Shown: piece by piece, positions 49,600 to 64,000 of the stretch
How positions within the stretch are numbered: position 1 is the stretch's first letter
Layout of the letters: every line of letters starts with the position of its first letter
Assembly (NCBI GenBank): GCA_051047955.1
Contig: JBPGPT010000014.1
Coordinates: 62,001 to 126,000, forward strand
DNA: 64,000 bases
Reading direction: 5' to 3'
Source of the DNA: Cystobasidiomycetes sp. EMM_F5
Lineage: Eukaryota
Program-made: the position numbers and the translations under genes
Notes under the pieces: generated by a model
Seen by the model: only the letters and a program-made list of their open reading frames with translations
Told to the model about the DNA's origin: nothing
Databases searched by the model: none

Positions 49600-50390
49600 A
49601 TGGCACAAGGTGCGCTGAACGATGCTCTGCCATGGTTATTAGATCGCTGAGTGCTGACATGGCTGCTAATTCGTCTTCGACTGCTGAAACATCGTCGACA
49701 ACGACATACACAGTCCCTCGCAACTTTCGGTTGCTAGAAGAGCTGGAAAAGGGCGAGAAAGGTCACAACGAAGGATGTGAGTTGCGTCATGTAGAGAGCC
49801 TCGCAGGCGCGCAAGGGCTGGCCTGGCCTGGCTGACAGCTTGCGTGATCCAAACCCAACAATGCTATCATACAAACTGGACGATGTCGTCAATATACATG
49901 ATTCGCTGTTGTCTGGCTCACAGGGTGCTCCTACGGTTTGTCCGACTCGGACGACATCACCATGACGCACTGGAACGGGACCATTCTCGGACCACCGCAT
50001 GTCAGTTCCGTCTGGCATAGTGAGGGTATACGTCCTTCTGATCACTTTACACAAAACAGTCTGTGCATGAAAACCGCATCTATTCTGTCTCTATCGAATG
50101 TCCAGATTCGTACCCCGATAAGCCACCCATCGTTGCCTTCATTTCAAAGGTCAACCTTCCGGCAGTAGATAGCACGGGAAAAGTGAGCTAGGCTGCTTAG
50201 GTACTCTTCATGTAGCATTTGAGGTGGCTGACTTCCTGCTTCGTAGGTGAACTTCGCCAAGGTGGACGGACTTCAGACATGGCGCCGAGAGACAAACATT
50301 TTCGACATTTTGAGAGCCATCAGGAAATCCATGGGCGAGCCTGCCAACAAGAAGCTTCCTCAACCGCCAGAAGGCCAGACTTACAATTGA
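49600..50390 (+). CDS. MMS2: Ubiquitin E2 variant Mms2
   Basis: Spliced MAQVPRNFRLLEELEKGEKG, WNGTILGPP, HENRIYS and KKLPQPPEGQTY. Confidence 0.95.
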
Positions 50391-50840
50391 GAGGATCTAC
50401 GTTTGACCGCCTGCCGGAGTTACAAAGGAGCACACATACTGTGTGGCGCTGTTTCTGCCCTTGATGCACTTTAGAATTGCGGTAGTGTCGTCGTCTGCCC
50501 TTTGGGATGAGTAATTCCAATACAGTGATTATACTGATAATAATGAGCGCCCTGGAAAGTTGCGTCAGATCCGAGTGTAAGAAAGCTGGAATGTAACAGG
50601 TTGCGCTGACACAGTATGACCGCCATTGATACCCCCAAAAACAATTGAAGTAAACGCCAGCGCGTTACGACTCACCCCAATTTACAGCTGTGGATATCGT
50701 CTGGTGTGGAGATACCCTAAGTGCTGCCGACAACGGCATGTTTTCCCAATATGTTGAAGGACCACCGCAAAGCTGCACGAACCGCCCGAGATGTGTCCTA
50801 CGAGTACCTCATCCACCTCAAAAGGTGCCCTCATGCACGT

Positions 50841-50981
50841 CTGATGCACCCCTGTTGACGCTGACTTGCTCCTAACAGGGCTAATGCACCCCCGTCCAGC
50901 CTTAGCCGCCCCCAACATGTGTAATACACCCCTGTCAATGTTGACTCGCCCCCAAGCATGTCTGATGTACCCCCAAAGAAT
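50841..50981. repeat. Degenerate tandem array with about 40-bp period (two alternating 20-bp C-rich subunits, about 3.5 copies)
   Basis: Units ctgatgcacccctgttgacg / ctgacttgctcctaacaggg / ctaatgcacccccgtccagc / cttagccgcccccaacatgt / gtaatacacccctgtcaatg / ttgactcgcccccaagcatgt / ctgatgtacccccaaagaat. Confidence 0.75.
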
Positions 50982-51592
50982 TTATGCGGCTTATACTGAC
51001 CTCGGCAGGCGATACAATCAGAGTCTGTCGCTGACAAGATGTTGTGCGGGCGATCTGGTACGGATATATGCTACACTGCTGCCTCGCATGCCATTGTCAC
51101 TTCTACGTCATGCGAATGCATACATCCCCGCAATTACTAGTTTCTCGAAAAGGAGTCCAACATATTACAGCAGTGTCGAATGCGAAATCATTTGTACACC
51201 ATCTTATAGGACGCGTTGTAGTTATAACCATTATCTAAGCTGTTTCGTTCTCAATCCCCCAAACCTGGGTCTCCTATATATACTGTATTTCGCTCTCGCA
51301 CGCTCCAGCCTTTCGAAGTAGCTTGAGATGTATGCACACGGTAACGAACAGCAAGCCTGGCTCAAGATATTAACGTCGTGTTGGAAATCTGCTAATATAC
51401 CGTCGACTGATATGTGCGCTCTCCGATTGGTCGACTATATATGCCGCCGACTCCTTTTTTCGAAGTCGGTGGCGGCGGTGTCAGACCCAAACATCATTTG
51501 CGACACCCTCGTTCTCTTGCCCTTATTCTCTGCTTTAGACACAAACCCTTCAACCTCATTTGCAAACCTCTCACTTCATCTACTCATATACC

Positions 51593-52142
51593 ATGGCCTC
51601 TCAAGCACCTCCTGTCACAATCATCTGGTACGCCATTATCTGCTGTTGCAGCGCGTCATCGTAACTGACTTTACTGCTTTTCCTGCTATACAGCGGCATC
51701 AATTGCGCCTGCGCCGAGGAGTCCAAGGCTGCAGTCAAGACGGCCGACACGAGCGGCTGCGTCGCGCACGAGAACTGCAACTACGCCCAAGCTGGCAAGT
51801 GCAGTTGTGCAAATGGCCAATGCCAAGCGAGTCAAAACAAGAGACTGTGCAGTCTAGCAACAGAGGTACGTTGGTCTATTCCTACAATTGACTTTTCGTC
51901 GTTGCTGACTGTGTTGCATGTGTTTGCAGGGCAAGTGCGAGTGCGCTGTAAGTCTAACCAGCGGCCGCTTGCTAACTTTCCATTACATCCGATCTGATTG
52001 ACGTATATTCTGTCTTCCCATTACTGCTTTGTAGGCCGGCCAATGCAAGAAGATGGAAGAGACCCGTGCAGCCTGCCCTGCGAGCGGATCGTGCAATTGT
52101 GCCGCAGGCGTATGCAACAGAGCAGCTGTCCCTCTCCGCTAG
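51593..52142 (+). CDS. Metallothionein-like protein (110 aa, 16 Cys, modular)
   Basis: Exons 51593-51627, 51694-51865, 51930-51947 and 52035-52142 join in frame through canonical GT-AG introns. There are three CxC-containing modules, one aromatic residue and no signal peptide. Confidence 0.8.
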
Positions 52143-52261
52143 TCGCCGAGTACGGCAGACAGGCTGTCGGGCCTGTCGTCGTGACATGTATTGTAGCAAC
52201 ATCTCGTAGACTGACGTGTCAATCCTGCACGCAGCGTTCAGGAATGTCTCATCGCCCTTGC

Positions 52262-54675
52262 TTATTGAGATATCGAGCAGAGTTCTGATGGACCGGTTTG
52301 TTTTAGCCTTTTCTCACGTACTTTCCTGCCACCGCTCACCTTCAGTGCCCACTCCAACGCTTTCGCCGCCACCCAACACTCCCTGAACGTATTGTACAAG
52401 GGAACAGGTGCGAAGCGCATCACATCTGGTTCGCGTTCGTCGCCGTATACACCGGCTTGCTGCAGGAGATCGTTTGTGGGCGCAAGCATGCCGTAGTTGC
52501 GTGGCAGCAGCAGAACGGACAACTGAGCGCCACGATGCTGAGGGTCATCTGGCGTGATGATGGTAAATGCTGGTTTCCAGCGCGTTTGACTCTTGCTGAT
52601 CTTGATTGGGCTCGATGATACTTCGTTCTCATTGTCGTTCGCATTGTTTCTGCTGTGTTGCGCTTCTTGCCGTATTTTGTGCTGTTCCTCCTCAAAGGCG
52701 CTAATGTCTTTGAGCGGGACGTAGAAGCTTGACGATCGTAGCAAGAGGCTCAGATAGCATGTAAGACTCATGGACTTCTTTCGCAATTTCGAAAGGGCGA
52801 TGGCAGTCGTCGGAGGCACCTCCTGCTGTGCGGCATCCTCCTTGCCTATTGCTAACATTGTTTCCAGGGAGCCATGCAAGGACGCTAAATTCAGTATACT
52901 TGGAGTAGAAGTTACGAAACCTGCAGCCCCCGGAGCTGGGTCAAACTTTTCCGCCATGGTAAAGCGTGTATCGAGACTGTTGCGCAAAAATGTCTAACGA
53001 TTAGCCCTTGAAGTAGAAGAGACAGCATTGCCAAGTACCTGTTTCCCCACCAACCAGACAGACGCGGACGGTTTGCATGCCTTTCGTGGACAAAGAGACC
53101 TCCAATACCGCCAGGGCCACTATTGAGGTACTGGATGTTTGGTTTAAGATTGATGTCCCAAGCTCGTAGACGGAGCGATCTCACCTTGTATGTACACCAC
53201 ACTGCAAAGTCAGCGTTCCAATCGTGCAGCTTGAGAGGTACGTTGCCGATGGCATGAGCAAGATCCCAACCAACAAGGCACCCCTGTGCACGCCAAATTT
53301 AGGAGGAGATGCAAACGACACTTAAGGTTGTTGCCCTCACCTTCTTCTGAGCAGCCGCAGTAATCTTTTCCATTTCGAAGACTTGGCCAGAAAAGTAGTT
53401 GAGCCCGCTGAAGAAAACGACAGCCACTGAGATATCCTCGCATCAGAAACTACTCGAGTCGTTCAGGATTGTGTACATTACCTTGGTCGCCTTCTTTATC
53501 GATCCGTTCGAGAATGTCCTCTGTTCTGAGCGTATATTCACCGTCACGCGGGCCAACGACAACTAATGCGTCTGAGATATCTCGACTGTGCATCTCCGCT
53601 TGACTCGCAAATGCGTAGTGATCCGACGGAAAAGCCTTCTTCTCAAACATAATCTTGTATCTCTTGTCTGTCGGCCGGTAGAATGCGCACAATAGCATAT
53701 GTAGGTTTGCCGTTAGGGTACCCATTGTTGCTACTTCGCTGTCTTTGGCGCCGATCAATCCGCCAATCATGGGTGCGAGCCGTTCCGCTGCACCAGTCCA
53801 CGGAGCCTTGTAGGTATGGTTAAACCAGCCGGTGACTGCCTTGTCATGCCAAACAGACTGCTCTCGAGACATACGATCGGCGGAAGCGCGGGATTGCAGT
53901 CCTAGCGAGTTGCCAGCTAGATAGACTATGAGCTCATTCTCGTTTGGAATCGGGATATTTTCGCGATGCGCAGATCTTATCACTCTGGATCTCTGCTCCT
54001 CGGGCGATAGCTGGTCGGATCTAGCAGGCTGCATATGACCATTTCTAGCGGGCGCCTTGTTTAATCCAGAAGCAGTTGCAGGAGTGGATTCGTCGTCCTC
54101 CGAAGCTACAGCTGCTGCCAGTTCTTGCCGGACTTGCGTTGCCGTTCTAACGTCTACCGAGTCTTCCGATGATGTCGAGTCTGTTCGTCGCCTCTGGGGC
54201 CGGCTAGAGAGAATAGTCTGATGCGCCGAGGTTTCTGTAGTTCGGGGCAGGGACGTTTGCCGCACTGGAGGAGTGTGGGAAGACGGTGATAGCCTCCCAC
54301 TACGCGGAGATGCAGTCTTTGCGACTTTACTTGACGCATCCAGCTGCCTGTTCAACTCCTCCTTCAGCAGTTTGGCAAGTATCTCTTGACTTGGCTGACT
54401 GCTTCCTGCGGAGCTTTCGCCGTGGTATAGTCCATCTGTCGGCTCGACGACCTTTGTCATAGAATGTACGGTTGGAATTGCAAAATGGCTACGCATGTGG
54501 GAGATGGGGTCTGCAGAGTCCAGATACCTTGCAAATTTTGGGTCTGTAAACGTCGAGCAGCCTGATGCGCCCAGCATTGCTGCCAATTGCTGCTCGGGTT
54601 TGCCACTATTGCTTGCTCGGCTGCGAACAGTGTCAGTGATCCTTTCAACCGCCCAGACTACGAAACTCACGACAT
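52262..54675 (-). CDS. BNA5: Kynureninase with large insertions
   Basis: [54 protein letters not shown] and RFAPVPLYN. The start is modelled with a 5-nt first coding exon. Confidence 0.93.
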
Positions 54676-60908: not shown

Positions 60909-62141
60909 TCAATCGTCCTCGTTGATCACTTCGACGGCTTCCACAAGTAGCGATCCCTGAGAACAAAATCATTACTGGTAGATCAAGAGTGGTACTTTTC
61001 GCTTACAAGCTGCAAGACAATTTGGTTGACGTCGCCAATAATGCCAGTAACGTTCGTTGGTAGATGTTCCTTGGTACCACCGATCGGGATCTTGCCAATG
61101 CCAATAGTCTGGATGACACCAAGAGGATCCTTCGAGAGAGTCGCCATGACTGACGAACCGCCCGATGTGAACAGGCTTGTCGTAACATTTTCTGCCAGAG
61201 TAGTGGTAGTGCTGTGTAGCTCTACGACACTGCCATCAGATTGACTGTGAAAGACGGCAATGCAATCATTAGACAGGACAATTATCTCGAAAGTCGCGCC
61301 CCGTGAGATATACGCACTTTTCAGGATCACTGCAGGATTCGGAGGAAACACTGTTAGATATCTTCGTGGACGAGGACGAAAGGCTGGACACGGACGGGGA
61401 ATGTGCCGATGACACTGGATCATTGACCTTCGAAGATGATGACGCTGGTGCTGAAGGCCCGCTAGATTGTGACTGAGCCATCGAGCTCTGCGGAGGCGGT
61501 GTAGAGGATGACGGTGGTGGATTGACCTTGGAGGATGACGAGGCAGGTGGTGGAGGCGGGGGAGGCGGAGCTTGCGACGAGGGAGGAGGCTGCACGGACG
61601 AAGATGGCGATGGATTCCCATTTCCATCAGCCGTGTAATACCATGTCGCAGCGAAAATCCCGGCGTCCTGCGTCTGGAATTGGGTGAAAAGTGCCGGTAC
61701 GAGATCGATATCGCCGTAGCCGCAGGCTTCGCAAGCATCGGCAACCGTAGCAGTTCGGGTCACACCATTGAACGAGATTGTCACCTGCTTGCCGCAGTGT
61801 GCGCCGCTCTCATACTGGGCGAAGCCAAGCGCAATGGTCGCGCCCGTGTTCTTGAGCCAGTCACCGCATGCGCCCTTGTTGCCCGTTTCTGCGTGTCCAT
61901 AAAATGGAGCGAATGCCAATTGAAACGCGTACCTTGTACGTCAGCCACTCATCGCATCAGCAATTAGATGCGCACGCCTACCCGAGTTGTACCATGTAGC
62001 TGTACCTGTGTAGGCTCGCTTGATTAGGCTCCTCTCGATGGGGTCCGATGTCTTGTCCGTTGGTGCTCTGTTCCGCAGATCCGCTGCAGACACTAGCGCT
62101 ACCGTCCCAAAGAGACTCGCAGATAGTAGTAACGGAAGCAT
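60909..62141 (-). CDS. Secreted expansin-like/DPBB (RlpA-like) protein with Pro/Ser-rich linker
   Basis: Signal peptide, KR, GTATWY..TGNKGACG, CGKQVTI and ATVADACEACGYGDIDL. Confidence 0.85.
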
Positions 62142-62494
62142 TGAATGGCGCTCTCAGTTTCGTAGGACGTACGAACGGTGAAATACGCTACGGCAAAGTC
62201 GAGCTGGGCGAGAACCCGATACTTTACGGTTCTCTGCATTGGAGAGGGCTCCAAGAGTTTTGTAGCGCGACTCAAGCGGTATTACACCTTTTTGGAGACG
62301 ACGGAAAGCGGCCGAGCGGGCCCAGTCCGCGTAAGTGGCGACATCGCATTTGAGCAAGGGCGAATCGTGACAGCAGTAGGCGTATGGATATCCGCGGTGC
62401 ACTTCTGCTTGCGTGTTGGACCGATATGGTCCCAGTTTTATACGTTTGCATGGGCCTGTCGATTGCACGGGCCATTGAAATTGAGACAGCAGAA

Positions 62495-64000
62495 TCAAAA
62501 GTCGAGTTTCTGCTGCTTGAGCGCCTTATGGTCATCGCTGATTTCTTCCTTGGACTTTCTTTTCGTTGCAGCTAAGGCTTCGGCTTTGTCGACTTTACCG
62601 AAAGTGTTGAGATAGTCCGCAGCAGTGTCGTTCAGTACACGTGGATCATCCCCGTGTAGATTTGCCTTGTAGGCACGCTGTATGCGAGCAATACACTCTG
62701 CTTTACTAGCCTTGTCATCCACGATGGGTCCTGGGTAATCTTGCCCAATGATACAGCCAGCTTTCTTTTGGACATCGATTGGTGCCTCCCAAGGAGAGTA
62801 TATATACTTCGCAGGAAATTTCTTGAGCTCAGGCACGTATTCTCGAATGAAGGCGCCGTCTTTGTCGACTTTCTTGCCAAATGAAATGGGAGAGTAGACT
62901 CGGAAATATTGGCTAAAGAAACCGGATGCCGAAAGCCACATCCAGTTTGCACTGTTGCTGGCTGGATCCCAGTCAACCAGCCACGCTGATCCAGCGCAAG
63001 AGCATGCACTCAGCGTACGCAGTCAATCTGCACGCCGCACGACTCACAGTCAAAAACTTCTGCTCCGCGTTCCCATGAAATGTACAGTTGACGTGTTAGG
63101 AAACAAGCCGTGCTATGGCGGGCTAAATGATGGATCCAGCCATCATGCTTGAGCTTCCGCATCTGCGCATCGATCCAAGGGTAACCTGTCCGTCCCTCCT
63201 TCCAAGCCATGAAGCGTTCCCACGCATCTTGATTGCTCTCGTCGATCTTGAGTTCCAGGAGCTTCTCTCCTGTGTCAGGATCATACTGGTTGCGCAAGTC
63301 CCAATCAATGAATTTACATATTGGATTGCCTCTGATGCTTTCGAAATTTGGTGTTCCAGCTTGTGCGCAGTGAAAGAAATCTCTGAACGTGATTTGACCT
63401 AGGAGCGATACTGGAGGCCTCGAAGCATTCTTTGCCTTTGCTATTAGATCAGTAATGCTCCAAAAGAAGGTTCGGATAGACAGAGACCCAAACTTGAGAT
63501 GCGGCGAAAGGAGGGTTGCTGAATACATTACAAGCGTTAGCGACAGAGGGCTACTTGAGAACAGAATGGCTGAGACTGACTCTCTGGCTTGATGAATGCA
63601 GCTGGAGAGGTTTTTGGCTTTTCGAATATAATCGCTTCCTGCTTTCGTTCTGTCAGCCACTCCTGCATGATCTTGAGCGCCTCCGTTTCTCCTCCTCGAA
63701 TGAAGCTCGTCGCGGGTTTCATTGCCAATTCCTCCATTGTTGGCACTCCAAACTTGCCATCAGGTCCGGCGATGGACGTGTATGTAAAGTCTTCTTGGTG
63801 CTCGTGTCTATGCGGGGCATTGACGTCTCTGTCGCGAAAGTACTGAACTTCTGGCTTTTGCTTTTCTAAGATACTTGTGAAATCAATGTCGCTTGGCGGA
63901 GGCAGAAACGTAGGGCGCTCCAATGGACGATTTGGTAAACCAAGCCCGTCTGCTAGCTTCTGAAATGCGGCGTATGTTGTTGGCACCTTGCCTTTATTGG
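62495..64000 (-). CDS. (6-4) photolyase/cryptochrome; 5' end lies outside the window
   Basis: FEKPKTSP, LSPHLKFGSLS, GRTGYPWIDA, GWIHHLARH, NWMWLSAS and RVYSPISFGKK. Confidence 0.93.

Follow-up and report, generated by a model that had tools for sequence, protein, structure and literature searches.

The window, as the whole stretch of 64,000 nucleotides analysed here is called, is composed of intron-rich fungal DNA, and the genes flanking the locus under study were assigned by Pfam to a short-chain dehydrogenase, COP9 subunit 5, kynureninase and PIF1; a further gene at about 49660-50390 we take to be Mms2/UEV-like, two pieces of it having no Pfam match. Towards the end of the window are found a photolyase/cryptochrome-family gene (62495-64000, minus strand; Pfam FAD_binding_7) and a gene for a secreted-looking, Ser/Pro-rich protein (61269-62153, minus strand), which has no Pfam match and presumably resembles expansin-like proteins.

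Gene structure and transcripts

The gene of interest encodes a small Cys-rich protein and consists of the following elements, the modules being the Cys repeats described in the next section:

51560..52230 (+): minimum extent including untranslated regions, as covered by transcript contigs, which do not give the true ends
51593..51627 (+): exon 1, coding part; ATG in the context ACC-ATG-G; ends within the codon of Cys12; joint present in run X2
51628..51693 (+): intron 1, 66 nt, GT..AG, phase 2; skipped in one of four runs (X2)
51694..51865 (+): exon 2; remainder of the N-terminal C-x3-CxC, variable linker, lone Cys34, module 1 and the first Cys of module 2
51866..51929 (+): intron 2, 64 nt, GT..AG, phase 0; skipped in three of four runs (X1, X2, X4)
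51930..51947 (+): exon 3, a microexon of 18 nt with the G-x-CxC core of module 2; present in two contigs
51948..52034 (+): intron 3, 87 nt, GT..AG, phase 0; skipped in three of four runs (X1, X3, X4)
52035..52142 (+): exon 4, coding part; end of module 2, module 3 and the stop codon TAG

Once joined, the exons form an open frame of 333 nt (110 residues plus stop, 16 Cys), upstream of whose ATG there is an in-frame stop at 51536 and no in-frame ATG. Each of the three introns contains a CTRAY-type branch site, the GC content of the introns is 44-47% as against 59-67% in exons 2-4, and, with intron 1 retained, the reading frame ends after 23 residues. All three GT-AG joints are present in public transcript contigs (Logan) from four studies, at an identity of at least 99%; in particular, introns 2 and 3 are both skipped, with the 18-nt exon retained between them, in two contigs, and introns 1 and 2 are skipped together in one. 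Among the contigs of the four runs examined (out of seven sharing words with the region, their RNA nature being presumed from the records), none spans all three joints and none reads through any intron; Logan contigs give neither expression level, strand nor transcript ends. Since cDNA would be expected to lack exactly these three GT..AG intervals, as the contigs of the four studies do, splicing is shown, and the four-exon gene is real and expressed. The same model, with the same translation, had been proposed by a sequence-only reading of this DNA, which had also placed one module core on an 18-nt exon of its own; the transcript contigs bear out both proposals.

One copy of the gene is present in the 18.3-Mb assembly; a second match in the same genome (L004, E 0.025) was rejected, its frame looking non-coding and lying on the strand opposite another gene. 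On the 3' side, the convergent kynureninase frame ends only 120 nt beyond the stop codon (52142-52264), and contigs extend to 52230, so that the 3' UTRs of the two genes may overlap.

As to the origin of the small exon, the position of intron 2 is common to the window and to two Microbotryomycete-type loci recovered from metagenome contigs (L007 and L009), from both of which intron 3 is missing; the latter is seen only in the window and in the read-through model of one public homologue (P0017), where insertions flank the same six residues as the microexon on both sides. Because intron 3 is confined to these two, the 18-nt exon is, on this comparison, lineage-specific, having arisen within a single lineage, which refines the earlier proposal. 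Duplication of exons as the origin of the modules was considered and ruled out: since only one module boundary bears an intron, the modules are not exon copies.

The encoded protein and its family

The predicted protein (11.1 kDa, pI 8.15) contains 14.5% Cys, a single Tyr, neither Trp nor Phe, and four CxC pairs, its Cys being located at positions 12, 16, 18, 34, 40, 48, 50, 55, 64, 72, 74, 79, 89, 95, 97 and 102. The three repeats announced by the sequence-only reading as C-x(5-7)-CxC-A-x-G-x-C are present in the window protein, with Ala or Ser at the Ala position (C-x(5-7)-CxC-[AS]-x-G-x-C); in the family as a whole, the layout is an N-terminal C-x3-CxC, a variable linker of 9-31 residues, a lone Cys and three modules of the form C-x(5-8)-CxC-xxG-x-C, separated by conserved linkers of 8-9 residues, with CC and CxxC absent. 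When modules were compared against shuffled sequences in which the Cys were kept fixed, modules 1 and 2 scored 44.7 (shuffled 27.4 +/- 2.4) and modules 2 and 3 scored 47.1 (shuffled 23.6 +/- 2.6), the likeness between modules 1 and 3 being marginal by the same test (p 0.036); judged in this way, the likeness of the modules extends beyond their Cys and marks them as true repeats, and the Gly of the CxC-xxG-x-C core is invariant in 34 of 34 cores. A simple hydropathy scan of 12 sequences identified no hydrophobic signal segment in any of them, hydrophobic runs reaching at most 2-4 residues and the first Cys occupying position 7-12. The AlphaFold2 model of the Cystobasidium minutum homologue has a pLDDT of 36.5; the C-x8-C and C-x9-C segments coincide with helices of this low-confidence model.

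Homologues were retrieved by phmmer with the exon 2 frame as query (eight matches at E<=0.001, six of them relatives; the other two, P0002 and P0005, were dropped as CCCH zinc-finger repeats by eye) and by a profile built on four sequences, which matched 21 of 1,486 candidates. All 14 matches named by organism are hypothetical or uncharacterised proteins of Pucciniomycotina yeasts, belonging to Cystobasidium minutum, Rhodotorula, Sporobolomyces, Rhodosporidiobolus and Leucosporidium, three of these species having been verified as Pucciniomycotina, in two classes; the search was word-based, so that this distribution reflects the candidates thus retrieved and members in other fungi may be missed. 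Of the proteins with an organism name, P389DRAFT_93805 of C. minutum is the nearest (58% identity, 16 of 16 Cys shared), so that the window probably derives from a Cystobasidiomycete. Among 18 aligned homologues, an alignment which omits the partial P0003, P0006, P0026 and P0028, all 16 Cys are found in ten, with a non-Cys identity of 28-51% across two classes, and 15 in three; independently predicted homologues have identical Cys spacing end to end, and the metagenome-contig models L007 and L009 (from six loci of some two or three organisms) again carry 16 Cys with the same spacing. A form with 12 Cys and two modules occurs in three of the 18 (P0019, P0007 and P0018, from Leucosporidium and two others), which suggests the gain or loss of one whole 4-Cys module; two others of the set appear mis-spliced. 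More generally, the public models P0012, P0014, P0017, P0024, P0025 and P0027 look mis-spliced, with 5' extensions, retained introns or skipped exons, and the metagenome contigs L005, L006 and L008 contain long inverted near-copies of adjacent sequence, possibly amplification chimeras.

Other searches were negative within their respective scopes: no Pfam match, and in particular no metallothionein (MT) or CHCH family, was found for 17 members and two exon frames; NCBIfam yielded no match, PDB chains none at E<=10, and an atlas search with P0004 none that was usable. A word-indexed search with the exon 2 frame returned no candidates, none of the 37 pattern matches of a first metagenome scan was a relative, and no longer or fused form was seen among 8,000 scored sequences, the last being weak evidence. 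A published description of the protein or family, including the R. toruloides gene RHTO_04227, was not found in a search of mainly open-access papers; RHTO_04227 was not found in four of the five supplements of PMC11134681, and the word metallothionein is missing from the main text of PMC13692017. On the strength of its sequences, this is an unnamed, undescribed modular Cys-rich family of Pucciniomycotina yeasts. The suggestion that it might constitute an undescribed MT subfamily thus holds in part: the family is undescribed, modular, Cys-rich and devoid of a signal segment, and no curated MT profile matches it.

Small, with one Tyr, four CxC and a Cys content within the range of 13-35 mol% given for MTs (PMC12508003, excerpts), the protein fits the broad definition of the class by composition. 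With CnMT1/CnMT2 of Cryptococcus and TmMT of Tremella it shares a basidiomycete origin, tandem Cys modules and short exons and, with TmMT, a 3-Cys N-terminal piece and the CxC-xxG-x-C core, common to the middle of the Tremella unit (PMC4755600, excerpts). It differs from them in its 4-Cys units, Cys content of 14.5%, linkers of 8-9 residues and membership of another subphylum; moreover, the R. toruloides orthologue is repressed, not induced, by Cu, and TmMT itself appears constitutive (PMC4755600, excerpts). The 7-Cys units (CXC-X5-CXC-X3-CXC-X2-C; in Tremella CXCX3CSCPPGXCXCAXCP; same excerpts of PMC4755600) had no match in any of ten sequences. With the Agaricomycete heptaCys MTs (AcMT1/2, PiMT1, LbMT, HcMT) the protein has in common CxC-x4-C and growth by internal duplication (PMC12508003, excerpts), but it is about two to three times as long, and the heptaCys motif C-x4-CxC-x2,3-CxC-x4-CxC is found in 0 of 19 sequences. 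By these sequence criteria it is not a member of either the Cryptococcus/Tremella or the Agaricomycete 7-Cys MT families.

In language-model space the nearest clusters to the R. toruloides protein are ascomycete proteins of DUF7871 (PF25277), at 0.82-0.84 and of similar size, followed by a plant Ec metallothionein at 0.81; values below 0.9 are leads only, and the DUF7871 Pfam model matches none of 17 members. DUF7871 is possibly, we assume, the Crd2/CrdA MT-like family. Searches of the source genome for DUF7871, phytochelatin synthase and cytochrome c gave no match, the method being uninformative for intron-rich genes.

The R. toruloides orthologue and candidate control sites

Expression data are available for R. 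toruloides, where the family is represented by AAT19DRAFT_9276, a locus tag whose gene model is faulty. Its neighbours RTO4_9275 and RTO4_9274 are annotated as LSB3/YSC84 and as a KGD1-like E1 (PMC13692017, table rows), and YSC84 and KGD1-like genes also lie upstream of the homologue at L009; since the two neighbours match, RTO4_9276 (RHTO_04227) is the orthologue, its mapping being confirmed by synteny. The family gene lies directly downstream of YSC84/LSB3 in L007, L009 and R. toruloides and not in the window, which shows no synteny with the Microbotryomycete-type loci.

The figures that follow are from individual supplementary-table rows (21 samples) of a preprint on Cu and Zn stress (PMC13692017). 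RTO4_9276 is found at 320-387 CPM in buffer, 339-366 in 9 mM Zn, 279-321 in 3.33 mM Cu, 97-113 in 6.29 mM Cu and 86-125 in two Cu+Zn conditions, corresponding to 0.98, 0.82, 0.29 and, for Cu+Zn, 0.30 and 0.32 times the buffer value. No induction by Cu or Zn is thus seen in the conditions of these rows, a lack of induction being among the outcomes that the sequence-only reading had listed as counting against it; for comparison, Cu raises N. crassa cmt 3.8-13-fold in this study (PMC13692017). The fitness of RTO4_9276 insertions is -0.02 in Cu, -0.02 in Zn and -0.11 in Cu+Zn, none of them significant (padj 0.77-0.99 for Cu and Cu+Zn), as compared with -12.6 in Cu for phytochelatin synthase (PMC13692017); the IFO0880 gene model on which both the RNA-seq and the fitness counts were based is wrong at its 5' end, so that some of the counted insertions may fall outside the true coding region.

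Over the 21 samples, RTO4_9276 correlates with CCC1 (r 0.96), SDH2 (0.96), two aconitases (0.94 and 0.90), CYC1 (0.91) and ISA1 (0.84), inversely with FTR1 (-0.87), and little with TDH3 (-0.15), LEU1 (-0.17) and NOP1 (weak or none), these values being computed from the rows of PMC13692017 for some 21-22 hand-picked genes of one study. Where RTO4_9276 falls, in the most toxic Cu conditions, the counts for HapX (RTO4_14100) increase from about 5-6 to 36-57 CPM, and those for two genes of the siderophore-transporter family increase more than 20-fold; the iron-free mitochondrial genes ATP2, CIT1, COX4 and MIA40 show no consistent fall and the Rieske Fe-S gene passes from 974-1039 to 573-787, rows which were read off and not correlated (PMC13692017). 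The neighbouring YSC84 also follows (r 0.91), with a smaller drop to about 0.6-fold, and RIB4, two genes away, drops to 0.3-0.4 (PMC13692017); given this joint fall, a local effect or mis-assignment of reads is possible. Taken as a whole, the profile, from one study in another species, points to an iron-sparing pattern of the HapX type during iron starvation provoked by Cu.

Upstream of the gene in the window, three elements were identified:

50677..50698 (+): second CCAAT-N12-ATATC, 916 nt before the ATG
51409..51430 (-): CCAAT-N12-ATATC, candidate site for the CCAAT-binding complex (CBC) and HapX, 163 nt before the ATG
51436..51441 (+): TATA-like element TATATA, from a motif scan

Similar sites precede the homologues, namely CCAAT-N12-ATAT 211 nt before the ATG of L007 and CGAAT-N12-GTT 231 nt before that of L009; the latter matches exactly the Aspergillus CBC:HapX consensus CSAATN12RWT, and the sites of the window and L007 read ATA for RWT and are one base off it (PMC7144946, excerpts). 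In the source genome, the CCC1 promoter carries CCAAT-N12-ATATC about 214 nt before the likely ATG, with a chance of about 0.02 in 500 nt at the window rate of three per 64 kb; the ATAT form had been fixed before the CCC1 promoter was inspected, and the extension to ATATC was made after seeing it. The SDH2 promoter has CCAAT-N12-TTA. Genome-wide, the 22-mer of the ATATC form is not enriched (50 sites observed, 43.6 expected); two of the 50 fall in the 1.2 kb upstream of the gene, where 0.003 are expected, and beside 46 of the 47 other sites no iron-regulon gene was recognisable by Pfam on the longest frames. Given the near-misses to the motif and the lack of genome-wide enrichment, the promoter evidence is suggestive, and the CCAAT-N12-ATAT sites are candidates for a HapX control shared with CCC1.

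The source genome encodes a Hap4-motif bZIP-type protein and also has a copper-fist factor. The MRE, Ace1, CuSE and Mac1 motifs are not enriched upstream of the gene in the window (p 0.10-1.0), and one MRE is present upstream of L007 (p 0.037, one of 12 tests). Two minor features may be recorded: a degenerate tandem repeat at 50836-50955 (3 x 40 nt, 65-73% identity), 640-760 nt upstream of the gene, which is not matched elsewhere in the genome and includes two of the four MRE-like words (TGCRCNC); and, in the CCC1/VIT1 gene of this genome (L013; G000:C13, about 473,900), an apparent N-terminal extension with two CC doublets.

Metal and function of the putative thiolate protein

Four Cys are the ligand count of one Fe-S cluster or of one tetrahedral ion, and cells repress iron-consuming and iron-storing genes under iron shortage. 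Thiolate binding of metal by the family is plausible on sequence grounds, and is what 16 conserved Cys in the reducing cytosol would most plausibly be for; when the conserved Cys, the four-Cys modules and the co-variation with iron genes are considered together, an iron or Fe-S buffer is the simplest joint reading. It is possible, and tentatively preferred here, that the gene encodes a metallothionein-like protein of the iron-sparing regulon which binds iron or Fe-S clusters. Such a protein would be small, probably cytosolic and largely unfolded without metal; its 16 Cys would enclose iron, bound either in Fe-S clusters or as Fe(II)-thiolate, each 4-Cys module might act as one binding unit, and the N-terminal C-x3-CxC together with Cys34 may form a fourth. 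It would be transcribed when iron is sufficient and lowered, along with CCC1 and Fe-S and haem proteins, when iron is short, presumably through the CCAAT-binding complex and HapX, and would serve, in the manner of a metallothionein, to buffer iron or carry clusters, alongside storage in the vacuole. The more specific proposal of a Pucciniomycotina iron-thionein, i.e., a dedicated cytosolic Fe/Fe-S storage buffer made solely of tandem 4-Cys modules, whose spacing would be new among Fe-S proteins, under HapX control alongside the vacuolar importer, is rather doubtful.

The family has four-Cys clusters including CxC in common with the Fe-S motifs of HapX/Yap5, Dre2/anamorsin and SreA/Fep1; the patterns CGFCX5CXC, CX8CX2CXC, CX2CX7CX2C, CX5CX8CX2C and CDGSH were each found in 0 of ten sequences, those for Dre2, SreA and CDGSH being in what we take to be their usual form. 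LEU1 is a usual HapX target, and its flat profile, the co-variation of YSC84 and RIB4 and the absence of these known Fe-S motifs are points against the iron reading. HapX is described as having four Cys clusters, each of four Cys including CxC (PMC4232046, excerpts), and as repressing cccA and iron-consuming genes at low iron (PMC7714665, excerpts). The direction of regulation of the orthologue is that of CCC1/cccA, TYW1 (an Fe-S protein that buffers iron; PMC7714665 and PMC10616654, excerpts) and CUP1 in the HapX/Yap5 regulon, to none of which the protein, made up almost entirely of Cys modules and with no enzyme or transporter domain, is related in sequence.

Iron control does not by itself fix the metal, since in high iron Yap5 activates CCC1 and TYW1 and, with them, the copper metallothionein CUP1 (PMC10616654, excerpts); for this reason a Zn- or Cu(I)-thionein with a housekeeping role and a new type of sequence, which would buffer Zn/Cu or thiol redox under the iron regulator, is a close rival, if on balance an unlikely one. 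The small size, the Cys-rich composition with one Tyr, no Trp or Phe and four CxC, the core that recalls the middle of the Tremella unit (PMC4755600, excerpts), the plant Ec metallothionein neighbour (0.81, a lead only) and the existence of constitutive MTs such as AcMT2 and TmMT are all consistent with it; the orthologue, however, is unresponsive to 9 mM Zn and repressed in Cu (PMC13692017), no MT Pfam family matches any of the 17 members, and the spaced 4-Cys units, with linkers of 8-9 residues and neither CC nor CxxC, differ from the densely packed 7-Cys units of MTs.

An inducible Cu/Cd detoxifier like Cryptococcus Cmt1/Cmt2, the likeness that had been drawn from the sequence at first, is improbable. 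Modular Cys repeats and short exons do recall Tremellales MTs, a copper-fist factor is encoded by the source genome, and this species may regulate the gene differently from R. toruloides, in which the Cu/Zn expression data were obtained; yet the orthologue goes down in Cu while N. crassa cmt goes up 3.8-13-fold, its insertion fitness is about zero as against -12.6 for phytochelatin synthase, strong Cu induction and a Cu-sensitive deletion belong instead to RTO4_15446 (all from rows of PMC13692017), none of the four metal-response motifs is enriched upstream, and the 7-Cys units are absent. Hardly more can be said for a disulfide protein of the mitochondrial intermembrane space (CHCH or Mia40-substrate-like) serving the respiratory chain: co-variation with SDH2, CYC1 and RIP1 (PMC13692017) and the C-x8-C and C-x9-C segments at the helices of the low-confidence model would fit it, but there is a single clean 9-residue Cys gap, with no twin Cx9C (a loose regex match permits Cys inside the gap) and no CHCH Pfam match, and the best correlate is the vacuolar CCC1, while COX17, COX4 and MIA40 do not follow (PMC13692017). 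Most improbable is a secreted or wall protein with eight disulfides, whether EGF-like, effector-like or hydrophobin-like; the Cys count is even and exon 4 weakly matches EGF_integrin (E 0.018, 15.5 bits, cut-off 27), but just one of 17 members matches this family at all (E 0.089), and the signal segment is lacking in 12 of 12 sequences.

The preferred iron or Fe-S reading would bear on how fungi store iron: ferritin is absent from most of them, and iron is thought to be stored in the vacuole and in intracellular siderophores (PMC10616654, excerpts), so that a HapX-controlled Fe/Fe-S protein would, if real, represent a third storage route and a new Fe-S ligand pattern. Even with Zn or Cu bound, this would be an unnamed metallothionein-like family across a fungal subphylum, and not one for copper detoxification. 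The question is testable, R. toruloides being tractable, a hapX deletion strain existing and the orthologue RTO4_9276 / RHTO_04227 being identified.

In the same rows, the hypothetical gene RTO4_15446 rises from about 275 to 4,400-30,800 CPM in Cu and stays flat in Zn, and its deletion is Cu-sensitive (PMC13692017); by behaviour alone, it resembles what a true copper metallothionein of R. toruloides might be.
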